A program made the translations under genes and the position numbers. The notes beneath the pieces are model-generated. The model did not search any database, was not told the DNA's origin, and saw nothing but the letters and a program-made list of their open reading frames with translations. From Gammaproteobacteria bacterium (lineage in GTDB: Bacteria > Pseudomonadota > Gammaproteobacteria > S012-40): a DNA stretch of 64,000 bases. The stretch covers positions 15,791 through 79,790 of the forward strand of contig JAOUHV010000005.1 of assembly GCA_029884425.1 (NCBI GenBank), given 5' to 3'. Positions 3,784 through 58,506 of the stretch are shown here, piece by piece; the first letter of the stretch is position 1; every line of letters starts with the position of its first letter.

Positions 3784-5873
3784 TGGCTGATGTACGCGAC
3801 TTCCTGGTTGAGCTGGGAACAGAAGAGCTGCCGCCCAAGGCGTTGGAAAAACTGTCCGATGCCTTTGCCGACGGCATCGTCGAAGGGCTGAAAAAAGCCG
3901 AACTGAAACATGGCGAAGTAATTACTTACGCCGCGCCAAGACGTTTGGCGGTAATGATCAAAGGTCTGCAAAGCAAGCAGGCGGACAAAGTTTCCGAACG
4001 TCGTGGTCCGGCGGTGCAGTCGGCCTACAAGGAAGACGGCTGCCCCACGCCAGCGACCGAAGGTTTTGCCCGTTCCTGCGGCACCACCGTCGAGGCGCTG
4101 GAAGTGCTGAAAACCGACAAGGGCGAATGGCTGGTGTTCAAACAGTCCGTCCAGGGGCAGGCGACTGCCGCGTTGTTGCCGGCGATGGTCGAAGAATCGC
4201 TGCACAAACTGCCCATCCCCAAGCGCATGCGCTGGGGCAGTGTTGATCATCAGTTCGTGCGTCCGGCGCATTGGCTGGTGATGTTGCTGGGCAAGGATGT
4301 GATCGAGTGCGAGATCCTCGGCTGCAAGGCCGGGCGCGAGACCTTGGGTCATCGCTTCCATCACCCGGCGGCGCTGACCGTGGCCGAGCCGGCAGCGTAC
4401 GAAACCCTGCTGGAAACCGAAGGCCATGTATTGGCCTCGTTTGAACGTCGTCAGGCGGCGATCAAGGCGCAGGTAGAGGAAGTGGCGTTGAAGGCTGGCG
4501 GTACTGCTGTCATTGATCCGGCGCTGCTGGACGAGGTGACTGGTCTGGTGGAATGGCCGCATGCGCTGATGGGCAACTTTGAACAAGCCTTCCTGCAGAT
4601 TCCGGCCGAGGCGCTGGTGTCGGCGATGAAGGGCCACCAGAAATATTTCCATCTGCTGGACAAGTCCGGCAAGCTGCTGCCCCATTTCATCACCGTCGCC
4701 AACATCGACAGCAAAAACATCACCTCGGTGCAAAAGGGCAACGAGCGCGTCATTCGTCCGCGTCTGTCCGACGCCGGTTTCTTCTGGAACCAAGACCGCA
4801 AAAAGCCGCTGGCAGCACGCCGCGAGCAGCTCAAATCGGTAGTATTCCAGAAAGACCTGGGCACCGTGTTTGAAAAAACCGAACGTATTGCCGCACTGTC
4901 AGGCTTCATCGCCGGGCAGGCCGGTGGCAACAAGGCCGAAGCCATCCGTGCCGGTGAATTGGCCAAGTGCGACCTGATGAGCGAAATGGTCGGCGAGTTC
5001 CCCGAACTGCAGGGCATTATGGGGCAGTACTACGCCCGTCACGATGGCGAGGCAGAGGCCGTGGCCGCCGCGATGAACGAACAATACATGCCGCGTTTTG
5101 CAGGCGATGAGCTGCCTCGTGGTGTGGCCGGTCAGGCGGTGGCGATTGCCGACAAGATCGATACCCTGGTGGGTATTTTCGGTATTGGTCAGCCGCCCAC
5201 CGGCTCCAAGGACCCGTTTGCGCTGCGTCGTGCGGCGATTGGCGTGCTGCGCATTATCATCGAGCGCGGTCTGAGCCAACTGGATCTGCAGGCGTTGGTC
5301 AACGAGGGTGTGGCTCGCTACAAGGCGGCGGGCAAATCGTTTGATGCCGGACTGGGCAAGCAGGTGTTCGACTTTATGCTGGAGCGTCTACGCGTTTATT
5401 ACAGCGACATCAACATTGGCGGCGATGTCTACGAGGCGGTATTGGCCACCCAGCCAACCCGTCCCTACGATTTTGACCAGCGGGTGCGCGCGGTTAACGC
5501 CTTCCGTCAGTTGCCACAGGCCGAAGCGCTGGCTGCGGCCAACAAGCGCGCCAGCAACATTCTGCGCCAGGCGGCGGAAAAGGGCATCACCGTGCCCGCC
5601 AGCGTGGACACGGCATTGCTGCAGGATGCCGCCGAACAGGCATTGTTCAAGGGCATCGTCAATGTCAGTGAGGCGGTGAAGCCCGCCATGGCGGCGTTTG
5701 ATTACACCAGCGCGCTGCAACAGATGGCGGTGCTGCGTGAACCGGTCGACGCCTTCTTTGATCAGGTCATGGTCATGGCGGATGACAGCAAAGTGCGGGA
5801 CAATCGTTTGGCGTTGCTGGGCAAACTGACATCACTGTTCACCGGTTGTGCGGACATCGCGCGGTTGCAGTAA
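3783..5873 (+). CDS. glyS: Glycine--tRNA ligase beta subunit
   Basis: 696 aa. Its ATG overlaps the glyQ stop (taATG); this is the classic glyQS operon. Confidence 0.95.
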   Translation: MADVRDFLVELGTEELPPKALEKLSDAFADGIVEGLKKAELKHGEVITYAAPRRLAVMIKGLQSKQADKVSERRGPAVQSAYKEDGCPTPATEGFARSCGTTVEALEVLKTDKGEWLVFKQSVQGQATAALLPAMVEESLHKLPIPKRMRWGSVDHQFVRPAHWLVMLLGKDVIECEILGCKAGRETLGHRFHHPAALTVAEPAAYETLLETEGHVLASFERRQAAIKAQVEEVALKAGGTAVIDPALLDEVTGLVEWPHALMGNFEQAFLQIPAEALVSAMKGHQKYFHLLDKSGKLLPHFITVANIDSKNITSVQKGNERVIRPRLSDAGFFWNQDRKKPLAARREQLKSVVFQKDLGTVFEKTERIAALSGFIAGQAGGNKAEAIRAGELAKCDLMSEMVGEFPELQGIMGQYYARHDGEAEAVAAAMNEQYMPRFAGDELPRGVAGQAVAIADKIDTLVGIFGIGQPPTGSKDPFALRRAAIGVLRIIIERGLSQLDLQALVNEGVARYKAAGKSFDAGLGKQVFDFMLERLRVYYSDINIGGDVYEAVLATQPTRPYDFDQRVRAVNAFRQLPQAEALAAANKRASNILRQAAEKGITVPASVDTALLQDAAEQALFKGIVNVSEAVKPAMAAFDYTSALQQMAVLREPVDAFFDQVMVMADDSKVRDNRLALLGKLTSLFTGCADIARLQ

Positions 5874-5987
5874 GTCATTGTAGGCCGGGAGCTTTTCCCG
5901 GCCAAAATCCCTAATAAAATCCTGCCACTGGCCGCTAAACCTGTGTGAAACCGAATACTTGCGCGGGCATTTGGATTTTGTAGAAAA

Positions 5988-9102: not shown

Positions 9103-10107
9103 ATGGATAACACCAACACCTTGAAGCAGTTCCTGACCAATGCCATGCGCAATGGTGAGAAGAACATCGATGCGGACCTGATTGGTCTGATCGAAAATGT
9201 GATGTCAGCCTGCCGCCAGATCCACGCTGCCGTTAACCATGGCGCACTGTACGGCGTATTGGGCAGTGCCGAGAGCGAGAACGTTCAGGGCGAAACCCAG
9301 AAGAAGCTGGACGTGATGTCCAACGACATGTTCATCAAGAGCACCCAGTGGGGCGGTCAGCTGGCGGGTATGGCGTCTGAAGAAGAAGACGATGTCTACA
9401 GCATCCCTTCCCAGTACCCACGCGGCAAGTACCTGATGTACTTCGATCCACTCGACGGTTCTTCCAACATCGACGTGAACATCACCGTGGGTTCAATTTT
9501 CTCCATCACCAAGTGCCCAGAAGGCGTCACCAACCCCAAACTGGCTGACTACCTGATCCCGGGCAGCAAGCAGGTGTGTGCCGGTTTCGTTCTGTACGGC
9601 CCATCCACCATGCTGGTGCTGACCACCGGTAACGGCGTTAACGGTTTCACGCTGGACCCAGCCACTGGCGAATTCCTGCTGACCCACGCCAAGATGACTA
9701 TCCCTGCGGATACTGCCGAGTTTGCCATCAACATGGCCAACCAGCGTTTCTGGGAAGAACCCGTACAGCGTTACGTTGACGAGTGCATCAAGGGTAAATC
9801 CGGCAGCCGTGACAAAAACTTCAACATGCGTTGGGTGGCTTCCATGGTGGGCGACGTGTTCCGCATCCTGACTCGCGGCGGTATCTTCCTCTACCCATTC
9901 GACACCAAAGACAAGGCCAAGCCAGGCAAGCTGCGTCTGATGTATGAGGCCAATCCCATGGCGTTCATCGTTGAGCAGGCCGGTGGCGTGTGTTCTACCG
10001 GTCGTGAGCGTACTCTGGATATCAATCCAAAGGAAATTCACCAGCGCGTGCCGGTTATCCTGGGCTCCAAAAACGAAGTTGAGCGCGTGGTTTCCTACCA
10101 CAAGTAA
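9103..10107 (+). CDS. fbp: Fructose-1,6-bisphosphatase class 1
   Basis: [14 protein letters not shown] and a full-length FBPase I match. Confidence 0.95.
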
Positions 10108-10126
10108 TTCGTTTTACGATTCCGCG

Positions 10127-10156
10127 AAAAACCCGGCCAAGCGCCGGGTTTTTTGC
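10127..10156 (+). terminator. Rho-independent terminator after fbp
   Basis: cccggc-caagc-gccggg stem followed by a T7 run. Confidence 0.7.
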
Positions 10157-10226
10157 TTTGTACGTATGCCGCGTTCGTTGAGTTTTATTTGCTTGCGCCG
10201 CTAACAAACAGAGTGATTCTGGGGCG

Positions 10227-10901
10227 GTGCAGGCAGTGGATCGACTACAGATATGGGTAAAATTTTTAATGATTGGTGTGCTGGCGTACTTCGCCACCTC
10301 GCTGATTTTGTTTGCCAATGAAGCCCGCCAATTCAGACAGGCCATCGATAATCTGGTGGTACAAATCGGTGAGGCAGGCAAAACCCTGGACGTGCCACAA
10401 ATTCTTGAACGCGTGGACACGGTTGCGCAGCAGATCGAACAGACCCGCGAAATGGTGCCGGAGATACTCGCCGAGGTAGAAAAGACCCGTGATGCCATTC
10501 CGCCGGTGCTCAAGCAAATTGAACTGACGCGCCGCGCGATCCCGTCGATTCTGGATGAAAGCGCAAAAATCCGCGAAGAAATTCCGCCAATTCTGCACGA
10601 GGTGGCGCAGGCCCGTGAGCTGGTGCCGCAGGTACTGCAGGAATCCGCCGCTATCCGCGCAGATGTGCCGACCATTTTGGATAAAAGCGAGCAGCTGATT
10701 TCCAAGGCGCAGCAAGTGTCGTCCGACATGGGGACAGGCGTGGTGAAAGGAACAGTCAAAGGCGTGGTCACCGCCCCAATCACCATCATTGAAACCGGAC
10801 TGGAAACACTGGGTTCGGGGATTGATGCAGTCAGTTCCCAGACCAGTAAAATTCTGGACATAAAGTCCAGCGAGCCATCAAAGCCATCTGCCGTGGAATA
10901 A
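10227..10901 (+). CDS. Membrane-anchored protein with six to seven tandem 14-residue repeats ([IV]PxILxExxxxRxx)
   Basis: N-terminal TM (IGVLAYFATSLILF). Repeats: VPEILAEVEKTRDA / IPPVLKQIELTRRA / IPSILDESAKIREE / IPPILHEVAQAREL / VPQVLQESAAIRAD / VPTILDKSEQLI. These correspond to 42-nt DNA repeats at ~10392-10707. Confidence 0.55.
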   Translation: MQAVDRLQIWVKFLMIGVLAYFATSLILFANEARQFRQAIDNLVVQIGEAGKTLDVPQILERVDTVAQQIEQTREMVPEILAEVEKTRDAIPPVLKQIELTRRAIPSILDESAKIREEIPPILHEVAQARELVPQVLQESAAIRADVPTILDKSEQLISKAQQVSSDMGTGVVKGTVKGVVTAPITIIETGLETLGSGIDAVSSQTSKILDIKSSEPSKPSAVE

Positions 10902-10916: not shown

Positions 10917-11956
10917 TTAGTTCAGTGCCGCCAAATACTGTTGGCTTTGTTGTTCGAACGAAAATTTTGCATAGTCCCGCATGGCTTTCGCTTTATTCGC
11001 CAACAGCTCAGGATGGGTAGCCAGGTCATGCAGTTGCTGTGGCAACTGTTGCTTGTCCAATGCAAATGCGCTGTGCTGAAAATCTTCAAAGGCCATGAAG
11101 GCGGGTTCAACTAGCATCGGAATGTGATAGGCGAATGCAAGATTAAATGCGCCAGATATGCCGGACTGAAGATAGCGCGGGTTGTCGCCCAGGCAGGGCA
11201 TAATCAAGTCGCATTGCTGAATGTACTGATGAAATTCAGTGTCGGAGACAAACTGGCGAAACACAATGAAGTTGTCGCGCAATTCACCTAGGCGAGCCTC
11301 GAAATCTTCACCGTCGCCATGAGCGTGACGACTGTTGCCCAGCAAAATAAATTTAATGTGTTTATCTGGCAAAGAGGAAAGCATGGCCAGCAGTTCCAGG
11401 TAGGCGCGGCGTTTGTATTCAAGTTGGCCGGGAATGCATATCCAGAATTCATTGGCTGGTTTGTGCAATTTTTGTTGTGGGTAGTTTGGGAAAAAAATGG
11501 GATAAAACGATTGCAGCTTGATGTCGTCAATGGGGTTGTTTTGCACGAGATAATCATTGAGTGCGAAAACGCGCCGAGCTTTTTTTGCCAGGGCGTGCCA
11601 GGTGCTTTTTTTAGTTTGTTAACTTCGTGACTGATTGCGCAAATGTGTAGATTTTTGCACAGCAGCATGAAAATTTGCACCATGCGGCCAGCAAAGGTGT
11701 TAACGATCACGCGCTGAATGTTGTGTTGCTTCAGGTATTTTTTCAAGCGCAGCACGGCAATAAATTGCGCAGCCCAGGATGAAGCATCGTGCAGGCGGTA
11801 AGTGTGCAATGGAATGCCGAGCTCGGCTTCGCGCTGCAGGTGACAGTCGGGAGCGACGAAGTGAATTTGATAATCAGCGTTGTGGAGAATTTTTGCTTGT
11901 GCGTACAGACATTCAAAATGGCCGTTACTAAATTCGATCGGGGCGATATTTTTCAT
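10917..11956 (-). pseudogene. Glycosyltransferase (GT-B-like), disrupted by a frameshift in an A7 homopolymer on the coding strand
   Basis: Two overlapping minus-strand ORFs (11288..11956 and 10917..11546) join into one ~345-aa protein (...ISHEVNKLKKAPGTPWQ|KKARRVFALNDYLVQNNPIDDI...). The shift is at the T7 run 11580-11586. This could be a sequencing error or a slipped-strand site. Confidence 0.55.

Positions 11957-12079: not shown

Positions 12080-13726
<1,647 letters not shown>

Positions 13727-58429: not shown

Positions 58430-58506
<77 letters not shown>

Follow-up and report, generated by a model that had tools for sequence, protein, structure and literature searches.

Bitopic proteins in which a coiled-coil stalk extends from a membrane anchor are an already known kind, and several described systems provide points of comparison for the one considered here, a repeat protein encoded at positions 10227-10901 of a 64,000-nucleotide stretch of gammaproteobacterial DNA (contig JAOUHV010000005.1, positions 15,791 to 79,790; this whole stretch is referred to below as the window). 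The protein belongs to an uncharacterized family whose repeat units are each marked by a proline. With respect to sequence, the closest described group is DUF948 (PF06103, COG4768), a Firmicutes family that includes YoxC of Bacillus subtilis and FacZ of Staphylococcus aureus. FacZ, the only characterized member, consists of a transmembrane (TM) helix, a cytoplasmic coiled coil and a disordered tail, and it binds GpsB (PMC10914604). Our literature search on YoxC returned transcriptome lists only. DUF948 proteins and the present family are alike in their N-terminal TM helix, long coiled-coil helix and small size (150-300 residues). The present family, however, is found in Gammaproteobacteria and carries proline-marked 14-mers, a glycine-zipper/AP motif and, in its longer members, a secreted-type domain. 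Its likely topology is the opposite of that of FacZ, which differs further in its basic disordered tail and its partner GpsB, a protein absent from the organisms of the present family.

Among envelope proteins of Gram-negative bacteria, TolA (domain II) and TonB share with the repeat protein a proposed layout of an N-terminal anchor, a repetitive spacer of ~20 nm and a distal element near the outer membrane. No sequence relationship accompanies this likeness: there is no TolA_C or TonB_C match in Pfam or NCBIfam, the TM helix lacks His and so lacks the S-x3-H-x6-L-x3-S motif, and no tolQR or exbBD genes lie nearby, which leaves the protein outside that group. Moreover, the TolA and TonB spacers are, respectively, an Ala/Lys-rich single helix and a Pro-rich polyproline rod, whereas the repeat protein has the pattern of a heptad coiled coil. 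Braun's lipoprotein Lpp resembles the form proposed for the repeat protein in being a periplasmic parallel coiled-coil rod with a length tied to envelope spacing and an Ile/Val-rich a/d core of the sort that suggests a trimer. It is nonetheless a protein of 56 residues without prolines, lipid-anchored in the outer membrane and linked to peptidoglycan, whereas the repeat protein has a proposed inner-membrane TM anchor, lacks a lipobox and is about 2.5 times longer.

Two further comparisons were considered and set aside. Apolipoprotein A-I also consists of tandem helical repeats that each open with a proline, but its repeats are 11/22-mers with 3.67 residues per turn and lie on lipid; with a unit of 14, a period of 3.5 and coiled-coil-type Glu/Arg flanks, the repeat protein does not belong with apolipoprotein- or LEA-type surface repeats. 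Phage i-spanins such as lambda Rz, which are inner-membrane proteins of type II, have their coiled coil in the periplasm. In this case we found no PHROG spanin match (only weak matches to families of unknown function), no phage context and no gene for an o-spanin lipoprotein, whether embedded or adjacent; the neighborhood is one of chromosomal housekeeping genes (fbp, groEL). Finally, proteins of the 17kDa_Anti_2 family (PF16998) share a domain with the long-form relatives of the repeat protein, which itself lacks that domain.

The repeat array and its heptad register

The repeat protein consists of a TM helix, an array of proline-marked units built of heptads, a glycine-zipper motif and a tail, laid out as follows:

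10227-10901 (+): repeat-protein open reading frame (ORF), 224 residues from the GTG at 10227, with the stop codon at 10899-10901
10257-10316 (+): N-terminal TM helix, about residues 11-30, WVKFLMIGVLAYFATSLILF, placed by Kyte-Doolittle hydropathy, family alignment A1 and the AlphaFold2 (AF2) model (predicted local distance difference test, pLDDT, 90-97)
10317-10391 (+): membrane-proximal helical segment, residues 31-55, in which the heptads are less regular (from the heptad listing)
10392-10454 (+): 21-residue unit of three heptads, VPQILERVDTVAQQIEQTREM
10455-10664 (+): five canonical 14-residue (two-heptad) units, [IV]-P-x-[IV]-L-x-E-[VS]-x-x-[TIA]-R-x-x, starting at 10455, 10497, 10539, 10581 and 10623
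10665-10706 (+): seventh, degenerate unit, VPTILDKSEQLISK, which closes the array and lacks the Arg; family form xPxxLD[KR]x
10737-10778 (+): glycine-zipper/AP motif, residues 171-184, GVVKGTVKGVVTAP, partly encoded by a 12-nucleotide repeat and conserved in A1
10779-10898 (+): C-terminal tail, residues 185-224, a low-confidence amphipathic helix, IIETGLETLGSGIDAV, followed by a hydrophilic end

In its repeat units, this layout agrees exactly with the original prediction, which had placed one 21-residue unit and six 14-residue units behind an N-terminal TM segment. Specifically, the most hydrophobic 19-mer spans residues 11-29 (mean Kyte-Doolittle 2.07), and the [IV]P motifs start at residues 56, 77, 91, 105, 119, 133 and 147 (nucleotides 10392, 10455, 10497, 10539, 10581, 10623 and 10665), the sixth 14-mer being the degenerate one. 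BLOSUM62 autocorrelation of residues 51-165, scored against 1000 residue shuffles, gave z = 9.9, 9.6 and 6.7 at lags of 14, 28 and 42, respectively, and side peaks of z ~3 at lags of 7, 21 and 35, which indicate that the 14-residue unit is itself made of heptads. Within the window, the motif [ILVM]P.[ILVM][ILVM].[EQDK] clusters in this reading frame only.

The register is sharply defined across the family. In 590 canonical units from 155 homologues, which follow the consensus [IV]-P-x-[IV]-L-x-E-[VSI]-x-x-[TIV]-R-x-x, proline occupies position 2 without exception (100%), and conservation is also high for I/V at positions 1 (85%) and 4 (90%), L at 5 (79%), E at 7 (83%), V/S/I at 8 (82%), T/I/V at 11 (82%) and R at 12 (85%). 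In heptad terms these residues are a (I/V), b (P), d (I/V), e (L) and g (E) of the first heptad and a′ (V/S/I), d′ (T/I/V) and e′ (R) of the second, with apolar fractions of 98% at a, 100% at d, 79% at a′ and 64% at d′, where the remainder is mostly Thr. The proline always falls at b, outside the a/d core and facing solvent. Spacings between motifs (n = 1678) are 14 residues in 60% of cases and a multiple of 7 in 86%; about 5% are 15 residues, and these are concentrated in a Vibrio-like subfamily described below.

In terms of helical geometry, the hydrophobic Fourier spectrum of residues 31-170 peaks at 103.5° (3.48 residues per turn), the family median is 103° (interquartile range 102.5-103), and power at 98-100° is 6-9 times below the peak. 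The protein thus displays the features of a canonical heptad coiled coil, with 3.5 residues per turn and apolar a and d positions in phase, and a period of 3.48-3.50 residues points to a left-handed coiled coil rather than to an amphipathic helix on a membrane surface (3.6-3.67).

These data bear on the original prediction, in which the region was an array of amphipathic helices, each opened by a helix-breaking proline. Such helices would lie separately on a membrane or lipid surface, with a role in binding, stabilization or curvature, and the regular prolines, the clear hydrophobic helix face and an anchor that holds the protein near the bilayer are all in keeping with this. The 3.5-residue period, however, holds family-wide, and with such a period the hydrophobic stripe of a straight helix twists and cannot lie flat. 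The hydrophobic seam is also narrow (a, d and alternate e) and flanked by a Glu/Arg pair of the coiled-coil type, and no Pfam matches to apolipoprotein, LEA or perilipin families were obtained. AF2, moreover, leaves the helix unbroken at the prolines. Taken together, we regard separate surface-lying helices as very unlikely.

The structure prediction that had been suggested as a check returned one long helix plus a membrane anchor. In the AF2 monomer model of the repeat protein, run with a 50-sequence alignment, helices span residues 2-53 and 56-175. Block-mean pLDDT is 92-98 as far as residue 150 and declines to 75 by residue 170; confidence is low for the zipper (173-184), and the prediction of a further helix (184-214) is weak. 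The overall mean pLDDT is 84.8 and the predicted template modeling score (pTM) is 0.39, as expected for a rod-shaped molecule. For a long-form homologue, P0005, the model shows a helix over residues 3-155 and an alpha+beta domain predicted with confidence at 186-277; the zipper between them (155-176) has a pLDDT below 50. Five models were scored for each of two members (mean pLDDT 82-88), and the best of each was an unbroken helix with no turn. Since one uninterrupted predicted helix runs through every proline, with a period of 3.48-3.50 residues and the prolines at b, neither the helix-breaking role nor the array of separate helices was borne out. A Foldseek search of the Protein Data Bank (PDB) with the repeat-protein model gave zero matches, as expected for a single long helix, and the long-form model gave nothing below E = 0.09.

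An extended helix is also the point on which a folded-back arrangement can be judged, in which the repeat region would form an antiparallel hairpin, bundle or solenoid, resembling methyl-accepting chemotaxis proteins (MCPs) or alpha-helical barrels, and thus a compact domain instead of a 20-nm rod. Weak profile matches to the designed antiparallel/barrel coiled coil sc-apCC-6 (E = 1e-10) and to MCP signaling domains (E = 0.003) are compatible with such a fold, as is the Leu at e, since it gives a wider core of the sort seen in higher-order bundles; an MCP-like domain is also mentioned in the COG name of YoxC. The alignment to sc-apCC-6, the best PDB sequence match, nonetheless reflects generic heptad likeness (LLEEIAxLL vs ILxEVxx). 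Moreover, the array contains no conserved loop or glycine and its spacings stay multiples of 7, and the turn that folding back calls for is missing from the best AF2 models of both members. A compact domain therefore appears decidedly improbable.

With respect to self-association, the Glu at g and the Arg at e′ stand in an i to i+5 relationship, the classical spacing at which salt bridges link the helices of parallel coiled coils, and beta-branched residues at both a and d favor trimers under Harbury-type rules derived from GCN4 variants. The Glu/Arg pairing and the beta-branched core are indirect hints that chains associate, and the family profile gave weak PDB matches to trimeric fusion constructs of the GCN4-pII type (E = 7e-4 to 0.9). 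From these sequence features we infer that the chains associate in parallel to form a coiled-coil rod, most likely trimeric, with a length of about 20 nm. The distance from the end of the TM helix to the zipper is 141 residues in the repeat protein (family mean 153, sd 19; short forms 138, sd 15), which converts to ~21-23 nm at ~0.148 nm per residue of coiled coil. Reported widths of the Gram-negative periplasm are of similar size.

To our knowledge, natural coiled coils almost never tolerate a proline in every second heptad. A proline kink bends a helix away from the proline, and a proline at b would bend it in the direction that supercoiling needs. Proline at 100% of one position in hundreds of lineages offers a clean natural test case for the effect of this residue on supercoiling.

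Family membership and the age of the repeats

An exhaustive phmmer search of 1.84 billion representatives identified 262 family clusters (defined at 50% identity) at E <= 1e-3, 174 of which lie at E <= 1e-10. The family comes in two architectures, short forms of ~180-230 residues, the repeat protein among them, and long forms of ~270-330 residues; a short N-terminus, a TM helix, the proline-marked run, a terminal xPxxLD[KR] unit and the Gly/AP motif are common to all members. Profile searches placed members in Sinobacterium norvegicum, Oceanicoccus sagamiensis, Pseudomaricurvus sp., Kaarinaea lacus and Ca. Thiodiazotropha, and others occur in Cellvibrionales, in many gammaproteobacterial metagenome-assembled genomes (MAGs) and in Tara contigs. 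The repeat protein used alone as a query found no relative in GTDB genomes. A scan of GTDB with a degenerate DNA pattern for the zipper motif found further members in Vibrio and Photobacterium, namely in Vibrio fortis (locus L013, 5490-6188, -) and Photobacterium sagamiensis (locus L011, 3074-3718, -; WP_428442021.1, 'hypothetical protein'). Three Anaerolineae MAG loci from the same scan look like chance matches, and the one inspected (L009) contains no family member.

Existing names reveal little of this relationship. Members appear as 'hypothetical protein', 'surface antigen' or, in one UniRef case, 'Surface antigen domain-containing protein', and the label 'archaellum component FlaC' is spurious. 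The original prediction had found no known family to which the protein could be assigned. This holds for curated libraries: Pfam, NCBIfam, PADLOC and PHROGs gave only a DUF948 match of 19.7 bits, below the Pfam gathering cut-off of 37.2 bits, and generic coiled-coil noise (Rad50, SMC, Laminin, ATG17). It does not hold in the wider sense, because a sizable, if unnamed, family of 262 clusters exists. Our literature search found nothing on 14-residue proline-punctuated periplasmic coiled coils. This gene of a marine gammaproteobacterium is real but uncharacterized, and its family is widespread and unstudied; at a minimum, an annotation gap is filled by defining an unnamed family with two architectures and a clear signature.

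The breadth of the family also decides against a chance ORF or a decaying repeat in place of a functional gene. A promoter scan upstream of the repeat gene found no sigma-70-like site, and a 268-residue antisense ORF (window 10055-10861, -) spans nearly the whole gene; this ORF is itself most likely a shadow of the repetitive, GC-patterned coding strand. In opposition stand the homologous clusters themselves, motif conservation that is position-specific while third codon positions are free, and the same architecture in cultured Vibrio, Photobacterium, Sinobacterium, Oceanicoccus and Pseudomaricurvus. Conservation of this extent effectively refutes the notion of a chance ORF.

The DNA-level periodicity of 42 nucleotides noted in the original prediction was recovered in weakened form. 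Nucleotide identity at lag 42 is 48%, compared with 29% in codon shuffles (z = 6.1), and by codon position it is 47% at position 1, 66% at position 2 and 31%, or background, at position 3; Tandem Repeats Finder (TRF) reported no 42-nucleotide array in the gene. The periodicity is thus confined to the first two codon positions, which argues that the repeats are old. Between units, identity is 37% for amino acids, 49% for nucleotides and 37% at third codon positions. Moreover, units resemble their positional counterparts in P0002, a 57%-identical orthologue, more closely (0.58) than they resemble other or neighboring units (0.33). On these sequence comparisons, the array is of ancient origin, its copy number does not vary among the closest orthologues, and selection acting on the protein maintains it. 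The earlier view that selection, and not recent slippage, accounts for the repeats is upheld.

Two observations concern repeats of other lengths. The sole repeat at the DNA level in the gene, and the only young-looking one, is a 12-nucleotide tandem repeat at 10736-10770 (2.9 copies by TRF, consensus AGGCGTGGTCAA), which encodes (G-x-V-K)x3 and hence GxxxGxxxG. In the Vibrio/Photobacterium-like subfamily (L013, L011 and proteins P0078, P0086, P0094, P0113, P0149 and P0154), the units have 15 residues instead of 14, with the form x-T-V-P-x-V-L-x-E-V-x-x-x-R-x; a unit of this length would shift the supercoil phase (3.75 residues per turn).

Topology, distal elements and possible role

The TM helix bears a family-conserved Y-[FL]-A-[TS] motif (consensus SLxYLA in A1). 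A cleavable signal peptide was rejected in its place, given that the hydrophobic stretch extends over ~20 residues and homologues do not preserve the LFA-N site. In 224 homologues, the net charge of the flanks is +0.84 on the N-terminal side and -0.35 on the C-terminal side (Wilcoxon p = 1e-25). Lys and Arg counted alone are also higher on the N-terminal flank overall (p = 6.5e-6); the difference is not significant in the 34 short forms, and this ambiguity means that the topology of the short forms is carried over from the long forms.

The glycine-zipper element follows the family motif [SA]xGAVxGxxxGIIxAP[F], lies ~20 residues past the terminal xPxxLD[KR] unit and is the best-conserved element outside the repeats, with G175, G179 and P184 at least 90% conserved in A1. 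As a candidate second TM segment it was rejected on hydrophobicity, charge and the AF2 model. Specifically, the GxxxGxxxG stretch at residues 171-179 contains 3 charged residues and has a Kyte-Doolittle maximum of 1.2, a value of 1.6 is reached by the zipper of no short form and of 9% of long forms, the zipper carries 2.5-3.8 charged residues, and its pLDDT is below 50 in the models of both the repeat protein and P0005. Nor does the element belong to the glycine-zipper membrane families (Gly-zipper_Omp, Rick_17kDa_Anti/SlyB-type), no Pfam match to which was obtained even at E <= 10. In the tail that follows, the helix IIETGLETLGSGIDAV is conserved in the closest orthologues only.

In the long forms, the zipper is followed by a C-terminal domain that exceeds the Pfam cut-off for 17kDa_Anti_2 (36.2, 28.3 and 27.3 vs 26.6 bits). 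This domain, with its pattern W-x-N-P...G...C-R...C...W, is absent from the repeat protein, a short form. Exactly two Cys residues are found in the domain in 190 of 209 long forms. A word-indexed search with the domain profile returned two proteins only, the informative one being P0270, a metagenomic protein of 122 residues that is a stand-alone homologue of the domain (hhalign probability 98%, E = 2e-13) and begins with a Sec-type signal peptide, MVMGRRGLMVLLSAACMAHSALA/Q. At E <= 0.01, P0270 itself did not match Pfam 17kDa_Anti_2; nothing was returned when plasmids were searched with it by tblastn or when the PDB was searched with a profile of the long-form domain, and our literature search found no papers on '17kDa_Anti_2'.

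Because of the charge bias, the lack of a second TM segment, the two-Cys 17kDa_Anti_2-type domain and the Sec signal of P0270, we favor an N-in/C-out topology, which would place the stalk in the periplasm. The protein would then be a single-pass inner-membrane protein with its N-terminal helix acting as a signal-anchor, and the ~110-140 residues beyond the anchor would form one continuous alpha-helix of unbroken heptad phase. Its core would be made of beta-branched Ile/Val at a and d, together with the Leu at e of the first heptad, and chains would pair in parallel into the rod described above, the periodic prolines serving as register marks or built-in bends rather than helix breakers. The far end of the periplasmic rod would bear the GxxxGxxxG...AP(F) motif, to which the longer paralogues add their disulfide-type 'surface antigen' domain. 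Our best guess at a role is that of a rigid, inner-membrane-anchored spacer or tether with its distal end near peptidoglycan or the outer membrane.

The topology is also where DUF948 offers a different reading, in which the N-terminus is outside, the coiled coil is cytoplasmic and the protein is a membrane scaffold like FacZ or YoxC, on which division or envelope-synthesis factors, for instance, might assemble. In Pfam, DUF948 is the leading match of the family: 42 of 50 members match at E <= 0.01 (best E = 1.5e-8), all of them below the cut-off, and the match takes in the TM and proximal helix over nearly the whole profile (positions 1-84 of 89). The repeat protein aligns at E = 0.001 over residues 22-90 (profile positions 17-83 of 89), and it has the DUF948 architecture of an N-terminal TM (residues 11-29) followed by a membrane-proximal coiled coil, helix being predicted from there onward. 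Moreover, the Lys/Arg counts of the short forms are compatible with an N-out topology, and FacZ is predicted to assemble as a 3-4-mer coiled coil (PMC10914604). On the other side, none of the 11 members scored individually reached the DUF948 cut-off (19.7 bits for the repeat protein; 24.8-33 bits or no match for the ten others), and profiles made of a TM and a coiled coil draw compositional matches. The net-charge bias favors N-in, the positively charged disordered tail of the FacZ type is absent, and the long forms end in a two-Cys domain that has a secreted stand-alone homologue and is separated from the stalk by no TM. By its sequence, the family may be termed DUF948-like at most, and we consider a cytoplasmic scaffold unlikely.

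Taken as a whole, the reading of the protein as a periplasmic coiled-coil stalk that acts as a spacer or tether is tentative and falls somewhat short of probable; we are more confident than this in the structure and less so in the function. Several points weigh against it. Stable coiled coils seldom carry prolines at intervals of 14 residues, the AF2 models are monomeric with a pTM of ~0.4, and AF2 often draws isolated long helices. Stalk length ranges from 111 to 215 residues, so that any 'ruler' is not tightly fixed. With regard to topology, Lys and Arg in the 34 short forms are in excess on the N-terminal side in 6, in excess on the C-terminal side in 13 and equal in 15, and in FacZ, the sole characterized relative by similarity, the topology is reversed and the coiled coil lies in the cytoplasm (PMC10914604). 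Finally, no conserved neighborhood or partner gene was found among the lineages examined.

A bolder and rather unlikely extension of the periplasmic-stalk reading would make the protein a hitherto unrecognized envelope component of marine Gammaproteobacteria, a functional counterpart of Lpp or TolA that acts from the side of the inner membrane. In this role it would be a strut across the periplasm whose length, set in steps of 7 or 14 residues, matches the distance from inner to outer membrane and whose distal motif (with the long-form domain) engages the outer membrane or peptidoglycan, the outward prolines representing a new design principle by which a natural coiled coil is bent in advance or made stiffer. 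If the rod is indeed periplasmic, Vibrio, Photobacterium, Cellvibrionales and abundant uncultured marine gammaproteobacteria would possess a new element that spans the envelope from an inner-membrane anchor, with a bearing on how envelope spacing and inter-membrane contacts are kept up. With no partner genes and a function that is only proposed, the immediate impact is modest.

Gene start and surroundings

With respect to the start site, a second in-frame GTG at 10236 (MDRLQIW...) would give a protein of 221 residues, and it is the likelier start because homologue N-termini read MEKLQI or MDKLQF and align to MDRLQI. An independent 6.9-kb Logan contig encodes a protein, P0001, that is identical to the repeat protein, and its neighboring genes are also the same. 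Upstream lies a class 1 fructose-bisphosphatase gene (fbp, 9103-10107), the product of which is identical to MDH5300148.1 from a gammaproteobacterial MAG, followed by one further feature:

10132-10154 (+): intrinsic-terminator-like hairpin 3′ of fbp, CCCGGC-caagc-GCCGGG then TTTTTT, read from the sequence

This terminator-like hairpin, which a consensus terminator scan did not list, would part the repeat gene from fbp transcription. The next ORF downstream is convergent with the repeat gene, which thus looks monocistronic. Comparison of gene neighborhoods across eight lineages revealed no partner in common, the surroundings being ordinary housekeeping genes that differ each time. In one of these neighborhoods (L002), two small co-directional ORFs of 138 and 116 residues (5064-5480 and 5596-5946, +) lie upstream of the short-form homologue P0004. 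This pair, which has no Pfam match, precedes this homologue in four independent contigs, and it is found neither next to the repeat gene of the window nor in the other lineages examined.

Downstream of the repeat gene, ORFs of 209 residues (window 10917-11546, -) and 222 residues (window 11288-11956, -) overlap in different frames. The latter has a weak match to the Glyco_transf_4 N-terminal domain (E = 0.004), and its C-terminal half seems to be out of frame. The two are probably one GT4-like glycosyltransferase gene of ~345 residues with a frameshift near 11550-11600, either as a real pseudogene or as an assembly error. Beyond it lies groEL (12080-13723, -), which encodes a protein with a 13-letter tail, in an ordinary chromosomal context. 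A single tRNA gene (58433-58506, -) is the sole Rfam match at gathering level in the window.

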